Source: Cenococcum geophilum (taxonomy: Eukaryota). From it: a stretch of 64,000 nucleotides of DNA. The DNA lies in NCBI GenBank assembly GCA_050273025.1, contig CP158635.1, forward strand, positions 17,112,001-17,176,000. Direction: 5' to 3'. The number at the start of each line of letters is the position of its first letter. Positions within the stretch are counted from its first letter, which is position 1. Shown here piece after piece: positions 15,677 through 64,000 of this stretch. The notes below the pieces were generated by a model. That model did not search any database and was not told where the DNA came from. It saw only the letters and a list, made by a program, of their open reading frames with translations. Both the position numbers and the translations under genes were made by a program.

Positions 15677-18185
15677 ATGGCTAGGAAGAAGAAAAGCCAG
15701 CAAATCGATGTCGCTGCGAGCACCAATGGCAATGGCATCACTTCTCCCATCCCGCCACCGCGAACGAACGCTTCACCCACCCCTTCATCGATTAAAACCA
15801 AAACTCCTGAGCCGTCGACATCAGCATTAATCATATGCCGCAATAAGTAGGTAAAAGTGGAGGCATGTCCTTATATTACTAGCGTCATACTCCATGGTTC
15901 TAACCGTTTATACTAACTTATTCTCTTCAAGGCACTGGCGTTACATATCCTCCTTCCATGGCCCATGGCTACAGCTACCCCCAGAAGTTCTTGAGTCTCT
16001 TGCGCACAGCAATTACTTCTCGCCACGCCCTCATCCAATTGACCCGGCTGTTTTCTACGATCTTGTGAAAATCCGCAGGGCTGTCGATGAGGCCACAAAT
16101 CTTGCAGTACGCGCCACTAGCGGCCTGACATCTTCCGCCTTAAGCAGCTCCCTAAATGCTGGGAATGGAATGCTAGGGGGCGCGGCGGCTTTAGGCATTG
16201 GATATGGGGGAGGAGGTGGAAGTGCGAAGCTGAGTCGGGAGAGGAAACACCGAATGCGAGAACTGGCGACGCAGAAGTTATCCCAGGCATACCACCTAGA
16301 TGAAATTGCGGCTAGCGTAGCAACGATGCAGTCCACCTCGACATTAGAAGACGTTGCTCAGCTAGTATTGCAACGGAGCGCAACGGATATCGATGCAAAA
16401 TATGTCCATTTTTTTCACGAGAAAATACCTTCCCGAATGATGGCCCAATGCACGCCGTTAGATGTTTTAAACGAAATAATAGCAGAAAGACCGAATGACG
16501 GATCACCTTTAAGAACTCGCGCGTTGACGAGAATATTTAAAGAGGATTATACTAATGCAGCACGGGATTTAACAGAGGGCCTTGCAATTTGTCGATTCAT
16601 GATAGCTCAGCATAGAGCGGGCAAGGATCAGCTGGTTCTCGCGCGGACCATAAAAGAACAATATGGTAGAGATTGGAGATCAGAAATGAAAGTTGAAGAG
16701 GAAGATCAACCGAATTCATTAGAAACACAGCTTCTCTTTCATCGTGCTGGGGTCTACTTTACAATCGCCTGCCAACACGTTGATGCTGCTTTAGACGGCT
16801 TAAAAGAAGCTGAACAGGCAAATCAGAACATGAACAGGTCTTTAAATCCGGAAGGGGACGAACCACCCCCTCTCAATGCAGCAGAAAAGGAAGCCCATCG
16901 TCGCCGGCTTGAAGCCCGAAAAGCCGTCAAAACCAACGCCAAGCGCGCACTCCGAGACTATATCGCATTCCTTTCTCAATTTGACTACACCCCTGGACTA
17001 GCCTCCGAAATCGCAGAAGAGTTTCTCCGCTGCGTAAACAGCGCAGCCAATGGTTATAACAACAAGCCAGCCAAAAGCTCTGGCACCCCTCGACTCCTCG
17101 ACTCACCATCTAGCCCCTCCTCCCCTGCCTCTGACGCCCTAGTACCTCACCGCAAACCTAGTCCTAACTACTCTGATCGTTCCAACTGGCCTCAACTTCC
17201 TCCACCGGAGATCTACCAAGTCTCCCAGCTCTTTTCCTCCACCCCTCCCGCCTCCCTACCTCCTTATCCCAACTCAAATGGCGCATCCTTTACCTCTTCA
17301 ATTCCATCCTCTATCCAACAATCTGCTGCTTCGGCGGCTGCATCTGCATTTGCAGATTCACACGAAGCAATTACCTACCATCCTTTACTCACTGACGCGC
17401 TGCACTCTCTCCTCCTTTGCCATGCCCTTCTTCAAACTCCATCCAAGGAACTCCTACGCCATGCCCACAACGCTGCTCGCCTCGCCCGTGTTTGCGACGG
17501 TTACCCGATATTTCTTGCCGCGCGCAGCCCTGCCCGCGCTGACTGGATTGAGGTGCTCCGCCGTGCAGGAAACTGGATCCAGCTGCAGCAGAGCTGGGAG
17601 ACGCTCTGCCGCCCTGCTCCTTTACCGGGCCATGGTAACTCCTCATCATCGCATCCCAGCAACGAGCTCTCGAAGATGGGTGCGGGAAGCGCCCCAAGTG
17701 CGGCGAAGCCAGAAACCGAAGCCCAGAAGCGTGAGCGCCAGAAACACGAAGCGATCCTTGAAGCATTAGCCGACGAGCGCGTTGTGGATGAAGAATCCTT
17801 CCAACGTGCGGTGCGTGCGAGGGAAAGGCGAGCCAGAGAAGACGAGGAGGCTGATGCGAAGTTGAATCGTGCTGCTGGTACTACCACTAACGGTGTTAGT
17901 GCTACGTCCAGCACCATGACGCCGACGAACCCTGCTCCGGCCCCGAAGCGCTGGGCGCAAGAAGACGGCAAGGAGTATCCCATCTCTACAGAGCGTGCGG
18001 AGGCAATCTCGCGGTGGGTAAAGGAGGCGCCGCTTACAGTCGAAGGGGGCAAGAAAGGGAAAGGAAAAGGAAAGGGTTCGACGAAAGGGAAGAAAGCCTC
18101 ACTGAGAGACGATGACACGGGGCTAGAAGGGAGTATAGGGGCTCTGAGTGTGGAGGATTTGGGAGACGATGGATTGGACGGATAG
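15677..18185 (+). CDS. Conserved fungal protein of unknown function (helical/TPR-like), 2 exons
   Basis: MARKKK...SALIICRNK|HWRYISSFHGPWLQLP joins across intron 15847-15931, followed by a long intact ORF. No recognisable catalytic motif. Confidence 0.85.
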
Positions 18186-18473
18186 GCTGTTTGGATTTAA
18201 AACTGGAGCAAAGATGCTGGCCTACGCTATAGAGTATGCCGAAAGCGGTTTTAATCTAAGAATCGATTTTTACGGACGAAAAAACGCAGCCTGCGCTTTG
18301 AGGTGGTCGCATGCTTGTAAATGTGTCTTATCTCCTGAATATCGCCTAACACCGCCTTTGTCTGCATTGAAGTTTCATTCATTAAGTCAATTTCAAGTAT
18401 TAGACCCGTACCCCTCTGATCTGTTTAATCCACCATATCGCTATTAAAACACTTGGTATTACAGAGCGTCCAG

Positions 18474-19094
18474 CTAGCCCTCTTTCCAGACGCTCAGAAC
18501 CATTGCTAACCGCTCCTCTAAACCGAGCATAGTCTTAGGAAGAAGGTAGTATTCTACCCCTGCCTCATTCAACATCTTACAGAATAAATCATGAAATTTA
18601 ACCCAACCAGAGACATCATCAGGCATCACCCTTATCCCATCGTCGAACAGCCATGGAACTCCACTCTCGCAAACAAATACCAACCCGAGTTTCATACACT
18701 CCCACATCTCCAGCCATTCTTCTGACTTCATCATCTCTTCTGCAGCGTCTTCTCCTACGTAGTACCGAGCATAAACAATCGGATCTAGTGCAGAGCGATC
18801 CGAGATATACCATCCATTTCTTTGCGTTTCCCTTTCTATCTGGCATTGGGCGGCAAGGATGAGCTTTTGAAGCTGGGCAGCTCGAGATTTAGAGGAAGTG
18901 ATATCGCTGGCAGTGAATCTGTGTTCGCGGAGAACATTTCGAGCAACTTCGTTGATGATATAAGGCTTTGGAGTTGCTTCACCGTGAAGACAGCGGTTTT
19001 TTTGAGTTTCAAAGAACTTGCTTAAAGCATGCACTAGCGTAGTCTTTCCGGTACACTGGGCTCCTACAATGTAGATGTTCTTCGTGTCGGCCAT
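18474..19094 (-). CDS. AAA_28/NadR-like P-loop nucleotide-kinase-fold protein (206 aa)
   Basis: N-terminal Walker A IYIVGAQCTGKTT, EVAR, NMP-kinase-type ISDRSALDPIVY, and DDGIR lid motif. Intronless and intact. Confidence 0.85.
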   Translation of the reverse strand: MADTKNIYIVGAQCTGKTTLVHALSKFFETQKNRCLHGEATPKPYIINEVARNVLREHRFTASDITSSKSRAAQLQKLILAAQCQIERETQRNGWYISDRSALDPIVYARYYVGEDAAEEMMKSEEWLEMWECMKLGLVFVCESGVPWLFDDGIRVMPDDVSGWVKFHDLFCKMLNEAGVEYYLLPKTMLGLEERLAMVLSVWKEG

Positions 19095-19337
19095 ATTTGT
19101 AGTCTTTGCGGTTGTGGTGCCTTGCTAACTGAGAGAGAGGTTGAGACAAGGCTTAGAAAAGACTCCGCTCTCTGTTGTGTAACCTTGCCCCGCCCTCTCT
19201 CCGTCATTTCCACGTTTCTGGTCGATACTGAAAGAGTTGAGCCATCTTACCAACATACCCTCAAATCTTGGCTGGCCTCAAAGCCAAGAAGAAACCGTCC
19301 TCTACTAAGACAACTCTCATACTAATAGAGCTGCATC
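19095..19337. promoter_or_regulatory. Probable bidirectional promoter (243 bp between divergent ATGs)
   Basis: Head-to-head start codons at 19094 (-) and 19338 (+). Promoter function is inferred from geometry only. Confidence 0.55.
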
Positions 19338-22300
19338 ATGTCGAACCAATCTAGCGTAAAGAGGCTCCGATCTTTCCAGCGAACGCTTCAGCCGGTAATC
19401 AAATTAGACGACCAAGCCTGGTCTTATAATATTCCCCGTCTGCCTAATAGCGCCGAACTATCCCGTCAAGGCCTAGTCAAATCCGTATCAGTCGTCTCCA
19501 ATGATGAACGTCAGTGTATTACGCTCAAATTAGAACAAGCTCCTCAAAATAGAGTGACCTCAGTCGAACCTCTGGAACACTTCATTCTTATATCTTTTGC
19601 TGATTTTCGGATCCGCTGCCCTTCAAAAACAAATCCAAATGTGACCGAAGCAGGAAGTGCGCGACAGTCAGCGGACTACATTATTCGTCTTCTTCAAACC
19701 GGCATAAACCTTAATGGAGTTCATTACTACTTCTACGGCCATAGCAACAGCCAGCTCAAGTCTCGATCCTGCTTTCTCCTAGCGGAATCCGTTGAGGAGA
19801 TCTCTAGAAAAGTAGAGCAAATGGGTGACTTCTCAAAAATCAAGACTGTGGCTAAGAAAGCAAAACGTATCGGTTTGCTCTTTTCTAGCGCCGTGATGGG
19901 GGTGCCGCTACCTCCGGAACGTTGTGAGGATATTCCAGACGTGCAGTCCGCGGATTATATCTTCACGGACGGTTGCGGACTTATTGCGCCACAATTGGCA
20001 GAGCAGCTAGTGAAGCAAGTCAACATTACCTACCGAAACAAAAAGTATATGCCATCTGTGTTCCAAATCCGCTATCGCGGCTACAAGGGAATTTTGACAT
20101 ACGAACCATCAATGCACGGCAAAATCCTGGCAAAGTTTCGCGACTCTATGAGGAAGTTCAAAGGGGCGGTCAACCACGACCTGTATGTGGTAGAATATTC
20201 AAAGGTGACCTAAACATAGGATTTCTGGCCAGATATTTTGTGCATCCATGCTAACTATTTCCAAGCCGTATGCTTACGGGTATTTCAACGATGAGACAAT
20301 ACTTCTTCTTCATGCCCTTGGAGTTTCTAGAGATGTTCTCCTCCAGAAGCAAGCTGATTACCTAAATTTCCTTCAAATTGCATCCTCGGGAGCCGATGGG
20401 GGACACGCCGCATTCAAGTTCTGCACACTTACGAACCATATGGATCTTGCTGAAGCTTTGCTAATCGAGGGCGTGGAAAAAGTGCTGCCTCAAGTCCGCA
20501 CGCTAGTAAACCAAGAAGAGCAAAAATTGCTGAATAAAAAAAAAGGTCAAAGATGCAGAATTATGGTGCCACAATCGAGGCTGATTTTTGGTGTTTGCGA
20601 TCCATATGATGTACTCCGCGAGGGGCAGTGTTTCGTCAGGATAACTCATGATGGTGATGGCGTGGCTCGAACAGTGACAGGCACAGAAGTTCTAGTAACG
20701 AGGAACCCGTGTTTGCATCCTGGAGATCTTCAAAAATTTCGAGCAATAAACCATCCCAAGCTGTCGCACCTCGTTGACTGCATAGTGTTTCCCACGAAAG
20801 GGCGCAGGCCAAGTGCTGATCTTATGTCCGGAGGAGATTTGGACGGTGACAAATGTAGGCAACACCCCGAAGCCCTCTCCTAACTTTGATCGCAAGGGCC
20901 ATTACAATCATTCGGTTCGTTGCTGATGTAATATGCCGGGCAGTCTTTGTCTGCTGGGATCCAGACCTGGTGCCTAGTATAATATCAGAGCCTGCACAAT
21001 ACCCTGGCGCCAAAGAGGCAGTTACATTTCGTCCAATTACTCACCAAGACCGACTCGAGTACTTCGCACGTTATTCTAGTGTGTCACTAGGGCGTGTTAA
21101 AAATTTGTATTTGGACTGGGCGAAATTGAAAGGCCCAATGAGCCCTGAATGCCAGCAGTTGAACAGACTTTTTTCGCAATGCGTGGACGGTAATCGGATC
21201 AAAATTCCAGTAATTCTAGAAGATCCGCCCAAAAAGAACCCGGATATGGATGACTTCATCCTCGATGTTTTGCATAGGGCATCATCTTCTCGCATCCAGC
21301 TGAAACTGTCAGCCCAGGAAAATCCAGATGCTTTCTCATTTGAAGCCATGGAAGTGCTGCTCAGTAACGAACCTGATGCCATATCTGAGTTCGAGCGCAT
21401 TCAAATGGCATATCGCTGGTTGCTAAAGAACGGTGGCGATTTCTCGGATTTTTTACCATTCTTCAATCTCGGACTACTCACTGATGAGCAGAAGGCTTGG
21501 ACCCTGAGTCTCCTTCCCATATCTGCTACCGGACCTAGCCTGGTCATGAATGGGCTTCTACAATCTGATCTCGTTGAGCCCGCAGAGCTGGAGAACTTCC
21601 AATTACATCACCCTATCTTCCATTGGAAGCCTATTTTCGACTCTTCGACCGACAGGCTCGAGACTTTTCTATCTTCCGTCAGCCGTAGTGTGGAGCTTTT
21701 CCATAAGAAGCTTATCATCTTGAGAGTGGATGAGCGCCTTACGGTAGCAATATATATCCCCCAGAAGTTGGAAAAGGGCCAGGAGTGTCAGGTTGGTGCT
21801 GCAGTACGGGTTTTTGCGTTCCCAAGGTCACAAGGCAGTAATTCGTCACGATACCGTGTGGTACCGACAAAAGTTAATTATAAGCTATTCTGTGACGACA
21901 ATGTTCTTCAGCTTTACGATGGAAAGCGTGCGAACACATTCATTTTCTTGTCAGAAGGTCCTCAGAATGATTCCTCTTACAGGCAGGAAAAAAGCAGCGG
22001 AGATCGGAGGAGACAAAGGCAGAAGACTTTCGAAGACGGGACGAACCATGCGTGCCGGGCTAGCATTGCGCTCGACAAGATTAGCAAAGACGTTCAGAGG
22101 CATGTGGGAAGGATAATTCGTTCAGGAATCGTTGCTGCTGTAAGAGTTTGAAGGGATGGGGTTGAGTAAAATCGCTAATAATAAGCTGCAGGAAGTCTAC
22201 GTCATCAGCAACAGAGATGTAGAGTCCCTACGTGCACTCGATCTTTGGTTGCAATATATTGACACCGAAGAAACATTGCCACTGTTTGAGAATGAAGCCA

Positions 22301-24731
22301 AGGAATTCTCCATTCCTACCTTAGGAAATATTGAATGGGATTCTGAGCCGGCTTATGTTGAAGACGTTCTTCGAAAAGAAAATCTAGCGGCACTGAACAA
22401 CTTGGAAAATTTCAGCGAAATTGAGCATGTCATGAAAATCCTCTTAAAACATAATGAGAGGTTGCGACTACGGAGATTGTTTGATTACGTTCTGGAACAT
22501 GTACTCCCTTCTAAGCGTGACCGCCGGAAGACTTTATTCCCATCTTTGCTCGGCATTCTGCTTGAAGCGCCCTTTCTAATTCAGGCTTTCCTGCTATCGA
22601 ACAGTTGGGATGCCCTATTTAGTGACCTTGAAGAAGACTTTGCCGATATGGCGCCTCAGTTGCTAACAGCACTAGTCATTGAATCCAGCATCATGCATGA
22701 GCTGATTCTCGAACCTTTCAAGTTAGTCTTGAGCAAGTTAAAGTACCTATCCCTACAACACCTCTCGGAAATTGTAGAGTGTGTTGCACTAACGATCCGC
22801 TCCCCCGACCTCGCAATGGACATACTTCTGGATGCATTGGAACCAGAGGGTAGTCGGCTATTGGTGGGCCGGCGGCCTGCAGTCGAAACATTCATGCGAG
22901 GTATTTTTGGAATCGCACTCGATCATATAGATGAAGCACTCGCTACCAAATCGGCGTGGAAGGGGCTCCTCGGTTTGACTTACAAGGATACTGTTAATGG
23001 CCATTCCATTGTTGAGGCCCGACCCCGAGTAGACGCACCGATTGCCCGCTTTTCGAGAGATGATCATGTTCGGCTCACGGCTGCAAGTGTCCCCAAGAAC
23101 TATCCCCTCGGACGACCATTCTCTATGGATACTATTGTCCAGTCTGCTCAGCTTGGAATTGTGACCTTCCGCTGCTTGCATCGACCACCCAGTTACCTGG
23201 AAGACTGCTCCTGGCAACTAAAGAACTGTGGTTCTTTCGTTACTAGTAGGGCCATGTTGGATGCTGTAACAGAATTTTATACCAACCGGGAATGCTGCCC
23301 AATATTCATGGAACTCGCCGGCTTAATACGGGAGACATCGATATTCGGAAATCGGGATAGGCTTGATTTAGCATATGTTCCCCGGCTTGATCTGAACGCT
23401 AGCCAAAATAGAGCGATCGAGGCAGCAATAACGTCTTTGGTTTGTCTGCTATGGGGACCACCCGGCACTGGTAAAACGCGCACAATTGTTGCCATGATCC
23501 AGGAGATGTTGCTAGCCGAGCCGGAAAAGAGAATATTGGTAGCTGCACCAACTCATAACGCAGTTGATAATGTCATGCGCAAGTACCTGGATGAGGTTGG
23601 GCATAAATATCAGGGTTCGGTGCCGCTCCGTGTGACGACAGATGTAGGATATCATTTCTTGGTCCTTGATTCCCCTAGGATGCTATTCCATGCTCCTATT
23701 TGTGACTAATGATTACCATGTAGGTCAGAAAGGTATCCGAAGACCTCAAACCTTATACATGTGACGCAATGTTAGGAAAGGATATCAATGAGCATCCCGA
23801 AGCACGTCGCAAAGCTCAGAAGCGGGTCAAAGAATCCCAACTGATATTTTCAACATGCATTGGTGCTGGTGTTGGGCTTCTTCGATCCGAACTCTTTGAC
23901 ACAGTGGTAATAGACGAAGCTTCACAGCAGACTGAACCTGCATCTCTAGTTCCACTCGTCAAAGGAGCAACAAGAGCCGTGCTCGTGGGGGATCACGTCC
24001 AGCTACGAGCAACAGTCCAACAAAATGCCCTTGCACAAGGATTTGACGTTTCTCTCTTTGAAAGACTCTACGGGCTTCCTGAACGTCCTGGCGTTCGGAA
24101 AGTTATGTTGGATACCCAGTACCGCATGCACCATGACATCTGTTCTTTCAGTTCAATGGAATTTTACGACGGCAAACTCCAAACGGCTGTGCGTGATGAT
24201 GCTCGCCCTCTACCACCCTCCAAATTCCCATGGCCCGCAGCGGGACCCAGGTCTTCTAACCGCAAAGTCTTTATCCCATGTTCTGATCCCGAAGACCTCG
24301 GCCGGAAATCAAAAAGCAACAGAGGACAAGCTATTCTCTGTCGGGAAGTCTGCAAACTCCTCACCACACATGCCGAGACAGGCGAAGCTCTCAAAGACTT
24401 CTCTATTGCCGTCCTGTCACCCTACGTGCGTCAAGCCGAGCTGCTACGTGGAATGCTGCCGGGCATTGAAATTGCGAGTGTGGATAGTTTTCAGGGTAAA
24501 GAGGCTGACATCATTGTTTACCCCACCGTAAGGTGTAATCTCAAACGGGAATCGGGGTTTTTGAAGGATATGAGGAGGTTGAATGTCGCGATGACAAGGG
24601 CGAAGGCTGGGATGGTGCTGATTGGACATAGCGAGACTCTTTTTGGAGGCGATGAGGATAAAGAAAGTGGGGATGTATGGAGGAGGTTGGTTAGGAGTTG
24701 TGAAATTGTTGAGATGAGCCCAGTGGTTTAG
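19338..24731 (+). CDS. RNA-dependent RNA polymerase fused to a UPF1-like SF1 helicase, ~1703 aa; exons 19338-20204, 20266-20854, 20944-22139, 22192-23643, 23724-24731
   Basis: Four GT-AG introns with branch sites join the ORFs in frame (5112 nt). RdRP motifs: FTDGCG, FQIRYRGYKG, RNPCLHPGD, SGGDLDGDKFFVCWD. Helicase motifs: LNASQ, WGPPGTGKT, APTHNAVD, IDEASQ, VGDHVQL, QYRMH, SVDSFQGKE, RLNVAMTRAK. Confidence 0.9.
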
Positions 24732-24779
24732 GGATAAAAACAATAGTTTAAATGGAATGAGAACTCATCCCTATAAAAG

Positions 24780-26104: not shown

Positions 26105-29100
26105 CTAAGTAATGTCTATCTTAATAAAAGTTAAAGGGCCTGATGAATGCCCCAGTACAAGAAGAGTTTCCCAAACCGCTACTGCTGTTACTCTAAATTC
26201 CGGAGGAAGCCAAAGAATCTCGTCTTTACTATCGTCACACACCCACTCTTGCTTAATAAAGAGGTTGTGCGAAGGTATAGTCTGAGGTAAAGGTAAAGAG
26301 TCTAAAATAGTACGGCTTAGGTTAACCCGCCCTTTACTGGAGTTAAGATATAACCCATTAGGCGAAAAAGAAAGCTCCGTAATATACTCATCGACATTAA
26401 CAGATCTGCAGAGCGCCTCCGTTACAGAGTCCCAGAGCCTGACCGTTTCGTCGTCCGACGCCGACGCCACCAGCTGGCCGTCCGGTGAGAAGGCCACGGC
26501 CCTGACCCACCCTGTGTGGCCCTTGAGTGTGCTGCGGGCTGCCCCCGTCGCTGAGTCCCAGAGCCTGACCGTGTGGTCCTCCGACGCCGACGCTACCAGC
26601 TGGCCGTCCGGCGAGAAGGCCACGGCCCTGACCCCCCCTTGTGGCCCTTGAGCGTGCTACGGGCCGCCCCTGTCGCCGATTCCCAGAGCCTGACCGTGTG
26701 ATCCTCCGATGCTGATGCCACCAGCTGACCGTCCGGCGAGAAGGCCACGGCCCTGACCCCCCCCCTGTGACCCTCGAGCGTGCTGCGGGCCGCCCCTGTT
26801 TCTGAGTCCCAGAGCCTGACTGTGCTGTCGTACGACGCTGATGCCACCAGCTGGCCGTCCGGCGAGAAGGCCACGGCCCTGACCCCCCCCCTGTGGCCCT
26901 CGGGTGTGCTGCGGGCCGCCCCTGTTGCTGAGTCCCAGAGCCTGACTGTGCTGTCGTACGACGCTGATGCCACCAGCTGGCCGTCCGGCGAAAATGCCAC
27001 GGCGCTGACCCACTTCGTGTGGCCCTCGAGTGTGCTGCGGGCCGCCCCTGTTGCTGAGTCCCAGAGCCTGATCGTGTGGTCTGACGACGCCGACGCCACC
27101 AGCTGGCCGTCCGGCGAGAAGGCCACGGCGCTGACCGCATTCGTGTGGCCCTTGAGCGTGCTGCGGGCCGCCCCCGTCACCGAGTCCCAGAGCCTAACCG
27201 TGCTGTCGTACGACGCCGACGCCACCAGCTGGCCGTCCGGCGAGAAGGCCACGGCGCTGACCCACCCTGTGTGGCCCTTGAGCGTGCTGCGGGCTGCCCC
27301 CGTCGCCGAGTCCCAGAGCCTGACCGTTTGGTCCGACGACGCCGACGCCACCAGCTGGCCGTCCGGCGAGAGGGTCACGGCGCTGACCGCATTCGTATGG
27401 CCCTTGAGTGTGCTGCGGGCCGCCCCCGTCGCCGAGTCCCAGAGCCTGACCGTGCCGTCGTACGACGCCGACGCCATCAGCTGGCCGTCCGGCGAGAAGG
27501 CCACGGCCCTGACCAACCCCGTGTGGCCCTCAAGCGTGCTGCGGGCTGCCCCCGTCGCCGGGTCCCAGAGCCTGACCGTGTGGTCCTCCGATGCCGACGA
27601 CACTAGCTGGCCGTCCGGTGAGAAGGCCACGGCGCTAACCCACCCTGTGTGGCCCTCGAGCGTGCTGCGGGCCGCCCCCGTCGCCGAGTCCCAGAGCCTA
27701 ATCGTGCGGTCCTCCGACGCCGACGCTACCAGCTGACCGTCCGGCGAGAAGGCCACGGCGCTAACCCACCTCGTGTGGCCCTCGAGCGTGCTGCGGGCCG
27801 CCCCCGTCGCCGAGTTCCAGAGCCTGACCGTGTGATCCTCCGACGCCGACGCCACCAGCTGGCCGTCCGGCGAGAAGGCCACGGCGCTGACCTCCCCCGT
27901 GTGGCCCTCGAGCGTTTGCAATAAAGCACTCCAGTCCCTCTGCACTTTAGGATGCCTGCATATCCATCTTGGTATCTGGTCCTTAAACGTGTCTCTGACG
28001 ATACTCCTCTCTGGCGCAAAAATCAATGCCGATGAATACAGCTGAAGAGGCGCGTCCTCGATTATTGACCTATTCTTAAGGATAAATCGTTTCGCATCAT
28101 GAAGGAAGTTGAATAGCTGCGTGCTTCCTTTAGCCTGTGTTACATTTGTATTAGTGAGCAATCAGTGCATTATTAGTGGTCATACTTACCTCTAAAATTA
28201 ACTGCAGTATATCCATCATCGAGATGCTCTCGATTACGTTTCCTATAAGACTTAAGGCTTCAAGCCAATAGAGCAGACGCTCATAAAGAAACACATGAAC
28301 CCGATCCCCATCACAAATTGTAGTCTTGCTGTGCTCTAAGCGGTAGACCCAGTAGCGACATGCATATTGAACGTCTGGCGGTAGAGCATGTCCAACAGCT
28401 TTACTGTCGACCTTGCTTCGTCGCGTTCCGGGCCTCTGTAGATCGCAGATGTCCTGCTTAAGATGCTTCGATCTTGACAGTAGCTCAAGACACTTGTTGG
28501 CCAACATCTCATGCACATCTCTCTTATCTATCCAAAATAGACTCTTTCCCCGCTTTCGGGGATCGAGAAGGAAGTCTCGGAAAGAAAGATGTAGAAGTCT
28601 CACAGGAGTAGCCCGATTTGCAGGGACACTGAGAACAGAATGCAGCAAGTCTAGCCTGTAAGCAATCTCATCTTCTGGAATGCCGAGGAGATTCGCGAGA
28701 GAAGTAACTGAGAGAGGACTAGCAAGGACAACGATTGCCCCGACTACTTCTCGAAACTCTTTGGCCAGCCTTTCTTTCTCTGTCTCGTCTTGGTCAACAA
28801 GTAGCTGGTCTAGGATCGGAAGATACGTTTTGTCAAACTTCGACGCTTAGCTTGCTGTTTAATGTTCAAGAATCGTGATCAACCGCTTCTTCGGGTCCCA
28901 TCTTGGATCTCCAACAAATCGACACACAGTCGCTGCGAAGATAAAAAGTGGAATCGCCATCTCAGTAAGAACACGGATATTCGCTTCTCCAGGCCAGTCA
29001 ACAGGTAGCCGGCGGTCGACTCGTATCCTGGTTAACTCGTGCGTTAAGAAAGCGGAGATGTCGTGTTCAACCGTCGCCTTGGGTATTTCATGAAGAAGGA

Positions 29101-30318
29101 AATCCTGATATATTGCTCCTGCCATTTGCTGAAAACCGAGGCGGATTGGTAGCTCTGGCCTGCTTGTCACAAATACCCGCAGACGTATCGGCTTTACGTC
29201 CTTAGCCTGTGCTAGAAGCTGAAGGATTGCTCGTATATCCTCTTCTCGCTCACACTCGTCTAACGCATCGATTACAACGACTAGTACTAAGGTGGTATGC
29301 GGAGAAGCTCGCTTCATTCCAGACAGCGGATAAAGGACAAGCTTCTCGAACTGATCTTTAAGAGCCTTTTCGGAAATGGCAGGGTCAGCATGGATCGCTT
29401 TTCTTATGCTAGGTGTTAGCTCCGGCATACAGGATATTAATTGTGTTGCGATAGTGGTAAAGAATCTCGTCGCGCTGCCGCGATCGCCCTCCCCTCTCTT
29501 AAAGAAAAAGCTGGCTCCTAGCACATCCCAATTTGCAAAGGACTGGGCTACAGTCCGAGCGATCGTGGACTTCCCGGTGCCAGCCATACCACTCAGCCAG
29601 AATATACATTTGCCATCGGGGTCTTCTACCCATTTTATAATATGACGCCGCAGCTCAACTCTTGTCTCCTCAAGACATCTCGCATTGTGTTCCTCATCAT
29701 GCGAATCAAAGGAGGTTCCTTTTGCGGTGGGCAGTTTGGCTAAATCAGCGTTCTGGTCCGTCAGATCTACCTTTCGATAGACAGCATCAGCCTTAATATT
29801 TGAGTGATCTAGCTTCTGATCGAGGTCGATCAGAACGCCACTGGCCCATAAGATTAGAAGTTATCCTCATCTACAACAAGACGAACATGTAAGGCTTACG
29901 TTTGATCGACTTGGAGTGCTAAAGAGAAAGTCTGCTCGTATTTTTCAAGACTACCAACAATCTTTTTCACCTCCTTGCTTGTAAAAGGCCATTTCAAAGC
30001 TCGCACTCCAAACCAGCTCATAACCTTGCGAGTTTTCCCCGGATCCAGCTGTATTTTTAGCTTTTCTAGCAGCAGAAGACAATCCTTAAGCGAGTCCAAT
30101 AATTTGTAAGTGACCGAAAGTCGCGTTTTGTCCCGCCCATCTAACAGCTGTTTAATTCCTCCGACAATATCTTTGATACCATCAACCTTCCCTTGAAGGC
30201 GTTCAATATCTTCCTTGGCATTCTTAACAGCGACTAAGTACTGGAAACAAAGCGAGGCGATTTTAGCGGATAGGTCGACCACAGCGATGGCGCTTGCTGC
30301 CCCCGACAGACCATCCAT
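26105..30318 (-). pseudogene. Fungal NLR: HeLo-like/SesA-like N-terminus, NACHT and WD40 repeats (HET-E/NWD-like), disrupted
   Basis: MDGLSGAASAIAVV...LKWPF N-terminal domain, CLEETRV...FWLSGMAGTGKST, VVVIDALDEC, and 12 WD40 repeats. Introns at 29899-29841 and 28189-28135. In-frame TAA at 28859-28861 and 28847-28849, and a 1-nt deletion near 26635. Confidence 0.88.
26400..27915 (-). repeat. 12 near-identical 126-bp WD40-coding tandem repeats
   Basis: Unit [42 protein letters not shown], repeated at the DNA level. Confidence 0.95.
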
Positions 30319-61751: not shown

Positions 61752-62470
61752 ACGTAACAGCCACCCGATCGAGCCACCTAAAATTACGCTTACCTCAGCA
61801 AGCTCAGACCATAGAATCAATTAGCGGACATACGTATATCCGCAAGCGGATATCGCTAACCTTTTTTGTCAAAAAGTTAATTCTATAGTCTAAGGGACTT
61901 ATGTAAGGTTTCTTAGGCGATCCGACTTATTTTATATATAAAGCAGTTACCTTCTTTAACGAAATTAATTTACACCCCTATAATAGCTATTATCTTAAAA
62001 ATACCGTTAAACTAATCCGTAGGAGTAGCTCTATAATCCATTAATATATCTACCCTATTAGCCCCTATAATGTTAAGTAGAAAGTGCCACTAAACGGGTA
62101 ATATATTAATAATTAACTTGCCCGCCCTTACTATAAATATAACACTAGTTAACTGGCGGACGCCTATCTAAACGCTAGCTAGAGCATTTGCTAAGTGGAT
62201 ATTACGCCCAGTAATAAAGGAAAAAAAGGTTAAAGTTATTATAGAGTATTTATAGGACTGGGGATAGTCCTTTAGCAAACTTTCTTTAGCCTAGCTATAG
62301 TATAGTACTAGTAAAAGATAACACTTAAAAAAAAAGAAGGTAAAGGAGCTTATTATTACCCTTTTAGGGGATAAAGAAACCCGTAATATAATTAAGGAGG
62401 CTATAAATATTTATTTAGAACTAGTTAATATAGTTATAAATATCCTTTATATATTACGGACGCTTTAAGT
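61752..62470. mobile_element. Tc1/mariner-like left TIR followed by a RIP-degraded relic
   Basis: TA|ACGTAACAGCCACCCGATCGAGCCACC, related to the TIR at 52920. Downstream sequence is TpA-rich. Confidence 0.5.
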
Positions 62471-62474
62471 ACAA

Positions 62475-64000
62475 TGTTATAACTACTTAGAGAGGAGTTG
62501 GAAGAAGCTAGTTAGTTAATATAGGTACGGACCAAGATAGAACCCATAGAACTATATAATGAGGAATGGTAAGTAAGTCACATAATAGTTAAACGTATTA
62601 GCTGCGTTAAATAAAAGGGACGTCACGTTTAATATAAATAAGACGTACATTACGTATAAGAAGGATTTTATAGGAGTACGGTTATATATTTAAGGACCCT
62701 TAGTCCCTACCTAGATAGTTCCTTCCTTATAGTAATTCTTAGAATATAATTGGAGTTAATCTATTAGGCAATCACTCCACCAGTTATTATTACGTTGTTA
62801 ACTTTTATACTTGTATTTCCTACACACCTAGCCTAATAACGAGCCCATCGTAGATCTTGCTATAAGGTTCCGTTACACAATTACTACCTAGTTACGGTAT
62901 TAATATAAGAAGTTAAATAATATGCCACTAAAAGCAGCTACTATAACGCCATTAACGGCAGCAACTACTTTAAGGATAGGAGGTGATACTAATATAGTAA
63001 ATACTAACTTACAGTAACCTGTGACGGTTGGATAGCTATAGGAAATAGTTAACTAGCTAATAGCTAATAATATAGTGTTAGAAGAAAGACTTAACGGAAT
63101 AGGAGCAGTAAAGATTAAGCTACTATTAATTAAGAGATTTATAGGGGAGAGGTTAAAGCTTAAAGGATTCCTTACGCAGATATACTTTAAGGTCTTATAA
63201 GAGGGAGTAAAGTTACCTATACCTGTGGATCGGATAGCCTATACAGGACTATTCTTATTAGAAAAAGCACTTAAGTAGTTTAAATTTTACCTTACGGAGA
63301 TATAGGTAAATAGAATGACGACCACTAACTAAGACGTGCGATTTATGTTCTTAAGTTAGGAAGGATTCGCAGAATAACTTATACAGATATTTAGAGACCC
63401 GGAAGAAACAACTATAGTAAAAAGAAAACTCTAGAACCTTATACAATAAACTTTAGTAATTAAGTATATAATATAGTTTTAGACACTAGTAATATAAGTA
63501 GAGTGGAATAATAGGGCGCTTATAGTATAGTATAAACAGGGACTTAAGGCTAAAGTTTAGGACGCGATTATCCTAATAGAAGATATAGATACCCTAAGGG
63601 AACTAATAAATTAGGCGATTAAGATTAATAATTAGATCTACTAAAGGGAATAGGCTAAGAGAGGCTAGGATAAAGTTCTATAGTTATATAAGGCGCAGAG
63701 TATATAATAATAAAAGCTAAGTTAGAAACTATAGTATAGTGTAGAGCTAATAGACCTAAATAGCACTAAAGAAACCTATAAGAAATAAAGCAAACTATAG
63801 AAACCTAGAGGATAAGAATTAAGTAATTAAAGGTCTAAGGAGCAGAGGCTAAATTAGGGATCTTAATAGTAGAAGATATTTAGGCGGACTCTATAGTAAG
63901 AGAAATAGTTTAAAGAAGGAGCTTATATAAATTGCGGAAAATAGGGTTATTATATTAGAGACTATAGAAGTGGATAGAGTTGCTATATAGTAAAGGGTAT
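62475..64000 (+). mobile_element. RIP-degraded Ty3/Gypsy element: 5' LTR (~62475-62877) and gag from 62922, continuing past the window end
   Basis: TGT...ACA-bounded segment, then IKLLLIKRFIGERLKLKGFLTQ and a degenerate CCHC knuckle GAYINCGK*GYYIRDY (~63918-63965) with RIP-type changes. Confidence 0.8.

Follow-up and report, generated by a model that had tools for sequence, protein, structure and literature searches.

A kinase gene kept head-to-head with an Rdrp5-type RNA polymerase-helicase gene in Cenococcum geophilum and other fungi: a probable two-gene module

In a 64,000-nucleotide stretch of the Cenococcum geophilum genome (GenBank assembly GCA_050273025.1, contig CP158635.1, forward-strand positions 17,112,001 to 17,176,000; hereafter the window, in which position 1 is the first letter), a small gene for a P-loop kinase stands head-to-head with a gene encoding an RNA-dependent RNA polymerase (RdRP) and a helicase in one chain, and the same pair was found in Ascomycota and in Basidiomycota-type loci. 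The kinase is a likely, previously unremarked and deeply conserved partner of a known RdRP-helicase silencing enzyme. We consider it probable that the two genes form an ancient module in which an active nucleoside or nucleotide kinase, co-regulated with its neighbor, serves the Rdrp5-type polymerase-helicase.

The kinase gene (18474..19094, minus strand) is a single exon with an ATG start and no sign of an intron, and it encodes 206 aa with a Pfam AAA_28 domain. The RdRP-helicase coding region (19338..24731, plus strand) comprises five exons and encodes 1703 aa. Between the two start codons lie 243 bp (19095..19337, strandless), which are presumed to act as a bidirectional promoter. These observations agree, in the list of open reading frames (ORFs) and in their coordinates, with a preliminary description of the sequence, which had noted a 206-aa P-loop protein with an Asp-Arg-Ser (DRS) motif on the opposite strand, 243 bp from the polymerase ATG.

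Conservation of the gene pair

Metagenome contigs were searched with an alignment of the kinase only, blind to the polymerase. Of the 593 stretches matched, 281 proved to be relatives. The 80 best of these loci were examined with up to 10 kb of flanking sequence by comparing them with the exon translations of the window using tblastn. Clustering of the kinases at 85% identity or more resulted in 48 lineages, 12 of them uninformative (less than 700 bp upstream and nothing seen there) and 36 informative. An RdRP gene was found directly upstream on the opposite strand in 33 of the 36 informative lineages, and the helicase followed wherever the contig was long enough. In one further lineage (L045) the polymerase-helicase gene is adjacent but co-directional, with ~390 bp between its end and the kinase. 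No RdRP was present beside the kinase in the remaining two, L027/L028 and L047; in L047 the kinase match (L047:1314-1906) consists of three pieces in different frames, with no RdRP within 1.3 kb.

One close relative of the window (L002, a strain 96% identical) belongs to a lineage that was represented in the count by L001, where the pair is complete. Homology between L002 and the window ends 28 bp before the RdRP ATG (window position 19309), and the contig end is occupied by 377 bp of repeat-like sequence with recurring TTCAGATT units (L002:1-377). Either an assembly break or an insertion into the shared promoter could account for this.

The other neighbor of the kinase, a gene of 763 aa, was used as a control and was kept in one of the 23 lineages with at least 2.5 kb of downstream sequence, that one being the window's own species. 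Because the RdRP neighbor recurs in 33 of 36 informative lineages, compared to 1 of 23 for the other neighbor, the adjacency is more than chance, and with the co-directional lineage included the linkage (34/36 vs 1/23) far exceeds background synteny and holds between distantly related lineages. The same two genes emerged when the ORFs of the window and of 24 representative loci were all compared with one another: only the kinase (25/25) and the RdRP-helicase (23/25) were widely shared. The remaining ORF clusters were shadow frames of these two or were small, and no third gene was common to all loci.

Linkage was also evident in named genomes. Consecutive locus tags for the kinase and the RdRP-helicase occur in Cudoniella acicularis (G7Y89_g9546 / g9545), Colletotrichum orchidophilum (CORC01_14095 / 14096) and Letrouitia subvulpina (Q9167_000504 / 000505). 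From contigs of equal size, we infer that both genes share one contig in Glarea lozoyensis, Hypoxylon trugodes, Lophium mytilinum, Diplogelasinospora grovesii and Podospora aff. communis. The preliminary description had proposed a two-gene system on the basis of this single locus and had called for a synteny survey, naming homologues unlinked in other fungi as a finding that would speak against it. Such unlinked homologues were not the pattern seen: the pair was linked in 34 of the 36 informative lineages (33 divergent, one co-directional) and in the three genomes with consecutive locus tags, and the proposal of a two-gene system is borne out at the level of gene order.

Loci whose kinases are only 23-33% identical to that of the window form two distant groups. 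A profile of these distant kinases, searched against 1.84 billion representative sequences, gave 2760 matches at E <=0.001 and 130 at E <=1e-30. Named relatives included Panaeolus papilionaceus and Amanita inopinata (Agaricales) and Atractiella rhizophila (Pucciniomycotina), as well as Aspergillus melleus, Cirrosporium, a Chaetothyriales species, Clonostachys and Fusarium equiseti. The taxon of each metagenome locus was assigned by its nearest named relatives; the kinases of L050 and L053-L080 were closest (36-50%) to the Panaeolus and Amanita proteins. These Agaricales-type loci are rich in introns, and a divergent RdRP-helicase is present wherever upstream DNA is available. In two of them (L065:5592-5692 and L070:1827-2005) an intron of the form GTGAG...AG interrupts the P-loop, with GPS before it and STGKT after it; the kinase genes of Pezizomycotina, by contrast, have no introns. 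A first exon was not found for the kinases of L064, L073 and L062 with the pattern used. The second distant group (L041-L054) is recognizable by the P-loop GPQSTGKT. Altogether, the sequences place the origin of the pair before the classes of Pezizomycotina and, going by nearest named relatives, put it in Basidiomycota as well.

The kinase and the polymerase-helicase

The kinase belongs to Pfam AAA_28 (PF13521, the NadR/Ttd14 AAA domain), with 98.1 bits against a cut-off of 27 (E 8.3e-28) over residues 7-189, corresponding to positions 2-160 of the 164 in the profile. Its motifs comprise a Walker A at residues 11-18 (GAQCTGKT), a Walker B aspartate motif at D99-R100-S101 and a lid at D151-D152-G-I-R155. 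There were 309 relatives of similar length, and the best 120 of them are ~45-56% identical to the kinase and include Lecanoromycetes, Sordariomycetes, Leotiomycetes and Dothideomycetes. The names given to these listed relatives are 'NadR/Ttd14 AAA domain-containing protein', 'AAA domain-containing' or, in several cases from the Joint Genome Institute (JGI), 'nicotinamide riboside kinase'. Residues invariant in 28 aligned kinases include, amongst others, G11, G16, K17, T18, E49, A51, R52, D99, R100, S101, D104, Y108, D152 and R155; those invariant in all groups, judged from this alignment together with one of 20 sequences that contains distant members, are G16, K17, T18, E49, R52, D99, R100, S101, D151, D152 and R155.

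When the family profile was compared with the PDB, the only matches were chains of NadR (6gye, E 5.2e-5; 8x7f; 1lw7). The profile alignment places the fungal 'isDRS' on 'FLDTD' of L. lactis NadR and 'vdDGvRlmP' on 'IDDGFRHM'. In the available part of PMC7221760, the Walker A, Walker B and lid regions of L. lactis NadR are given as 187-195, 254-260 and 304-318, respectively, and GAQCTGKT, D99 and D151-D152-G-I-R155 of the fungal kinase fall in these three regions of the ribosylnicotinamide kinase (RNK; EC 2.7.1.22) domain. On account of this alignment and the region numbers, the DRS motif is assigned as the Walker B aspartate with the arginine that follows it, and DDGxR as the lid. The kinase scored below the cut-offs of the NadR models TIGR01526 (32.8 vs 341.15 bits) and NF005988 (21.3 vs 201), both of which include an adenylyltransferase domain that the kinase does not have, and below those for thymidylate kinases (PF02223, 16.5 vs 27 bits; TIGR00041, 19.7 vs 83.25).

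An AlphaFold (AF2) model of the kinase, with a predicted local distance difference test score (pLDDT) of 91.8, was structurally compared with 48,161 representative chains, and the best 50 matches were listed. NadR ranked highest (8x7f, Z 19.0, root-mean-square deviation (rmsd) 2.1 over 173 aligned residues; 6gye, Z 17.3), followed by thymidylate kinases (Z 14-16) and by deoxynucleoside and herpesvirus thymidine kinases (Z 13-15). Lower matches included PSTK (3a4l, Z 10.9), human NRK1 (Z 10-11) and Kti12 (6qp0, Z 9.8). Foldseek gave the same picture. The polynucleotide kinases Clp1, Grc3/Nol9 and T4 Pnk were absent from these best 50 matches and from the listed Foldseek matches, which leaves room for a family that was not listed. 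PADLOC returned P-loop-level noise only (E 0.002-0.006), and PHROGs returned thymidylate kinase and NadR-like families, adding nothing beyond the fold. The nucleoside monophosphate (NMP)-kinase-type fold attributed to this protein in the preliminary description is upheld by the structural matches, and its DRS motif aligns with the Walker B aspartate of NadR.

The ratios of nonsynonymous to synonymous substitution (dN/dS) for the kinase against two close strains, 0.33 and 0.23, were obtained from few differences and indicate purifying selection. From sequence and model together, the protein is predicted to be a stand-alone small-molecule kinase of the NadR-RNK, thymidylate kinase or deoxynucleoside kinase type with all catalytic motifs in place.

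The partner is a true RdRP-helicase, as had been described from the sequence: it has Pfam matches to RdRP, AAA_11 and AAA_12, its spliced frame is open, and ten annotated fungal homologues align with it over the whole length, FGSG_09076 (P0182) being 48% identical over 1722 columns. Its exons occupy 19338-20201, 20263-20854, 20944-22139, 22192-23643 and 23724-24731 (including the stop), and the first intron boundary could lie 3 bases further right. The RdRP domain (PF05183; ~19533..21257, plus strand, ~residues 66-590) spans introns 1 and 2 and contains DLDGD at residue 480. It is followed in the same chain by an Upf1-like superfamily 1 (SF1) helicase core (AAA_11/AAA_12; ~23407..24689, plus strand, ~residues 1290-1690) that spans intron 4, and the whole is collinear with FGSG_09076.

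FGSG_09076 is FgRdrp5 of Fusarium graminearum, for which the accessible portions of PMC4515635 and PMC11237814 describe an RdRP that carries a DEAD-like helicase and AAA domain at its C-terminus and forms a branch of its own among the fungal RdRPs. The same sources report that FgRdrp5 is required for normal ascospore discharge and contributes to the accumulation of exonic small interfering RNAs. The polymerase-helicase itself is thus already known, the window's plus-strand gene being by its sequence the FgRdrp5 orthologue with the same RdRP and AAA_11/AAA_12 architecture.

Pfam matches nothing in the ~690 residues that separate the RdRP domain from the helicase core. A TLDc domain was not found in this middle region by Pfam at E up to 5, and structure search alone found it. 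The region was modeled through the homologue P0128, of which 927 aa correspond to window residues 487-1369 at 48.8% identity (44-row alignment, pLDDT 81.4). By VIA-align, ~224-430 of the P0128 model matched the TLDc domain of OXR2 (4acj_A, Z 13.2, rmsd 2.9, 155 of 167 residues aligned), with further TLDc matches to NCOA7B (Z 13.1), mEAK7 (12.1), Skywalker/TBC1D24 (11.4), Oxr1 (10.7) and Rtc5p (10.6). An Atlas search with the window's own segment gave clusters of BACK and TLDc domains as its lead (score 0.90). The part of the model at ~611-927 matched Sen1/SETX, Upf1 and ZNFX1 by VIA-align, with Aquarius also appearing in the Foldseek/VIA results; Foldseek on the 927-residue model returned helicases only. 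Transferred from the P0128 model, the TLDc-like domain would lie at ~21537..22209 on the plus strand (~residues 684-890), spanning intron 3. The predicted order in the partner is an RdRP domain, a helical region, TLDc, a helical arm and barrel, and the Upf1-like helicase. A TLDc domain goes unmentioned in the portions of the FgRdrp5 papers that were available (PMC4515635, PMC11237814).

The shared spacer and its transcription

Both start codons could be assigned in 22 of 27 representative loci, and in these 22 lineages the ATG-to-ATG spacer measures 112-661 bp (median ~218). A promoter word, GTTACACAA, lies in the window at 19175..19183 on the minus strand, which is the direction of the kinase gene. 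With up to one mismatch, and always directed towards the kinase, it was found in 9 of 13 Pezizomycotina-type spacers, namely in the window and in L003, L006, L012, L016, L019, L025, L031 and L032. The exact 8-mer GTTACACA was present in 7 of these 13 spacers, compared to a maximum of 4 in 200 shuffles. In the distant groups, GTTACACAA occurred in none of nine spacers. The whole window contains the word twice, against 0.3 occurrences expected. Based on these counts, GTTACACAA is a candidate shared cis-element.

Transcript evidence was taken from four public runs, consisting of contigs of the metatranscriptomes X17, X3 and X2 and of the raw-read run X21, which represents another strain. Both genes are transcribed, being covered by X17, X3 and X2 contigs identical to the window sequence. 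One X17 contig of 5260 nt spans 19251-24767 and skips 20202-20262, 20855-20943, 22140-22191 and 23644-23723, all with GT..AG boundaries. The number of RdRP-helicase joints observed was four in X17, three in X3 and two in X2. The frame spliced in this manner is open over 1703 aa, with DLDGD at 480, a Walker A GPPGTGKT at 1306 and DEASQ at 1432. The kinase is covered without joints by contigs that end at 19121 (X17) and 19124 (X3), and the contigs on the RdRP side begin at 19251 (X17) and 19246, so that ~122 bp of the spacer are in neither contig set. The window's copy of GTTACACAA falls in this gap in coverage. The positions at which the contigs stop suggest a pair of transcript starts ~122 bp apart, although contigs cannot prove a start. 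One X2 contig is unspliced through the spacer and the first two introns, and that library therefore contains DNA or unspliced RNA. Contig depth in the three metatranscriptomes is no measure of expression.

On its other side, the kinase gene faces the ORF of 763 aa (15894-18185, plus strand; no Pfam match), which converges on it, and single metatranscriptome contigs cover both. In X21, reads over the 3' half of the kinase (area 18200-18760) are mostly oriented like those over the 763-aa gene. The contigs that span both genes, together with this read orientation, suggest overlapping convergent transcripts.

Elsewhere in the window, a fungal gene resembling NOD-like receptors (NLRs) lies ~1.7 kb past the RdRP-helicase stop (26397-29587, minus strand); it consists of a NACHT/NPHP3_N ORF and, after it, a long ORF of WD40 repeats. 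Within the window, G+C peaks at 0.63 in the 26-28 kb stretch. The window ends (1-2000 and 62001-64000) are AT-rich, with a G+C of 0.32 compared to ~0.47 elsewhere and with strong skews, and contain no ORF of at least 220 aa.

Interpretation of the pairing

The gene order in fungi is quickly scrambled, and divergent gene pairs in fungi tend toward co-expression. That the head-to-head pair has been kept from Pezizomycotina to Agaricales-type loci despite this scrambling strongly suggests that the two gene products depend on one another, and the retention of the pairing in almost every fungal lineage examined makes the kinase a likely, so far unrecognized partner of the polymerase. Under the two-gene module favored here, the kinase and RdRP-helicase genes, which are transcribed outward from a very short spacer, would share a promoter and would probably be co-regulated. 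The kinase would be catalytically active as a phosphotransferase of the NadR ribosylnicotinamide-kinase, thymidylate-kinase or deoxynucleoside-kinase type, most likely phosphorylating the 5'-hydroxyl of a nucleoside or an NMP, and its substrate would be a small molecule. It may act in the pathway of the polymerase, for example if the polymerase uses or senses a nucleotide made or controlled by the kinase.

Several observations weigh against this interpretation. The loci examined represent a limited share of the confirmed kinase relatives, and the linkage survey started from the kinase only and not from RdRP-helicase genes. In L027 and L028 an intact kinase (L027:4264-4884 and L028:2922-3542) has a CorA-like gene upstream in place of the RdRP, and the kinase can therefore exist apart from the polymerase gene. 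A fusion of the kinase with an RdRP or a helicase was found in none of the proteins of 362-2000 aa searched, which is weak evidence; that search yielded two longer kinase relatives (651 and 953 aa), neither of them with an RdRP or a helicase, and PF13521 was in none of the 120 listed RdRP-helicase relatives. In Fusarium graminearum itself, FGSG_09075, a neighbor of FGSG_09076, is a transcription factor (supplement of PMC11237814, where FGSG_09077 is not listed). The parts of the FgRdrp5 papers that were available (PMC4515635, PMC11237814) mention no neighboring kinase, the conserved kinase and the TLDc-like domain being additions of this work. The X21 run contributed 79 reads, almost none of them on the 5' half of either gene. 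Finally, with an NCBIfam NadR score of 32.8 compared to 341, the kinase does not qualify as an orthologue of NadR, so that homology does not reveal its substrate.

The observations could also be explained by an ordinary nucleoside-salvage kinase, acting on nicotinamide riboside or another nucleoside, that is adjacent to the polymerase gene only through promoters entangled in the short spacer and shares no pathway with it. The nearest fold and the only sequence relatives in the PDB are indeed NadR riboside-kinase domains, the JGI annotation calls several homologues nicotinamide riboside kinase, and the intact kinase of L027/L028 lacks a polymerase gene upstream. Additionally, a gene for a concentrative nucleoside transporter (PF01773/PF07670/PF07662) is the other neighbor of the kinase in four lineages. 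It is convergent with the kinase in L029, of Pezizomycotina type (L029:7443-9151, minus strand), and co-directional in three loci of the GPQ group (L041:11109-11719, L045:5499-6392 and L051:4276-5461, all plus strand), and these two arrangements suggest at least two independent associations. The transporter supports a free nucleoside as the kinase substrate, though in a minority of lineages. Entanglement would not readily account for an RdRP neighbor kept in 33 of 36 lineages, Basidiomycota-type loci included, when the other neighbor was kept in 1 of 23. In L045, moreover, the polymerase-helicase gene is reversed and there is no shared promoter, yet the genes are still adjacent; promoter entanglement alone is therefore insufficient, and we regard independent salvage as unlikely.

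The transporter also bears on a further alternative, in which the protein is a polynucleotide 5'-kinase that phosphorylates the 5'-OH of RNA templates or products for use by the polymerase-helicase or for Argonaute loading. Its P-loop kinase fold is of the same broad class as that of RNA kinases, its conserved partner is an RNA enzyme, and the tRNA-acting PSTK and Kti12 are among its structural matches. However, the best matches by a wide margin (Z 19.0 to 13) are small-molecule nucleoside and nucleotide kinases, and a transporter neighbor indicates a free nucleoside, which makes activity on RNA ends quite improbable. Catalysis might even be dispensable if the protein were a nucleotide-binding regulatory or assembly subunit that switches or stabilizes the polymerase-helicase, in the manner of TTD14, a GTP- and phospholipid-binding protein (available part of PMC4624897) with which it shares a Pfam family. 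Asp-Arg-Ser and the lid Asp-Asp-Gly-x-Arg are invariant in kinases of Ascomycota and of Basidiomycota-type loci alike, as would be expected of a catalyst more than of a protein that only binds, and we consider a purely structural role very unlikely.

The two-gene module could be part of something larger, although we put this forward as a doubtful extension. It would constitute a nucleotide-based arm of fungal RNA silencing, with the transporter as a third gene in some lineages and the kinase converting an imported or modified nucleoside to a nucleotide. The product of the kinase would then be an initiating or terminating nucleotide for the Rdrp5-type polymerase-helicase, or a switch that is sensed. 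In vertebrates, the gene for the nucleotide kinase CMPK2 lies beside that for the immune enzyme viperin (RSAD2), and the kinase is thought to feed the substrate of its partner. The likeness, a nucleotide kinase gene adjoining a gene for a nucleic-acid or immune enzyme, is an analogy only and is drawn from general background; CMPK2 is a UMP-CMP kinase and not a member of AAA_28, and viperin is a radical-SAM enzyme, whereas the fungal partner is an RdRP-helicase. If true, the extension would mean that fungi have an arrangement with the logic of CMPK2-viperin, and it would bring in a component that is not known from any RNA interference pathway.

Other known systems share parts of this arrangement. 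The RNK domain of bacterial NadR (8x7f, 6gye/6gyf, 1lw7) has in common with the fungal kinase Pfam AAA_28, Walker A, the Walker B aspartate and a DDGxR-type lid. Identity is ~15-19%, the fungal protein stands alone without the nicotinamide mononucleotide (NMN) adenylyltransferase or DNA-binding domains, and the D-T-D of L. lactis NadR corresponds to D-R-S in the fungal family. Drosophila TTD14 is of the same Pfam family and is likewise a eukaryotic P-loop protein of the stand-alone type; the available part of PMC4624897 presents it as a GTP- and phospholipid-binding trafficking factor, with no link to RNA polymerases. On the side of the polymerase, the RNA-directed RNA polymerase complex (RDRC) of fission yeast consists of the Rdp1 polymerase, the SF1 helicase Hrr1 and the nucleotidyltransferase Cid12 (as given in the accessible text of PMC11237814). 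RDRC and Neurospora SAD-1/SAD-3 resemble the present pair in joining a silencing RdRP with an SF1 helicase, and RDRC adds a third nucleotide-handling enzyme. Here, in contrast, polymerase and helicase are one chain, the third party is a P-loop kinase and not a nucleotidyltransferase, and the association is known from gene order only.

A literature search from which subscription papers and bioRxiv supplements were excluded gave papers on FgRdrp5, NadR and TTD14, but none that connects a cellular RdRP with a kinase of the AAA_28 or NadR-like type. If the two-gene module is real, RNA silencing would gain a step of nucleotide metabolism, and that search found no precedent for one. The Rdrp5-type polymerase-helicase is the least understood fungal RdRP, and the published analyses, in the portions available, list its RdRP and helicase domains and no partner. 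A nucleoside-kinase-like partner provides a concrete, cheap and testable hypothesis for this enzyme, and the TLDc-like domain and the promoter word provide further handles on its biology.

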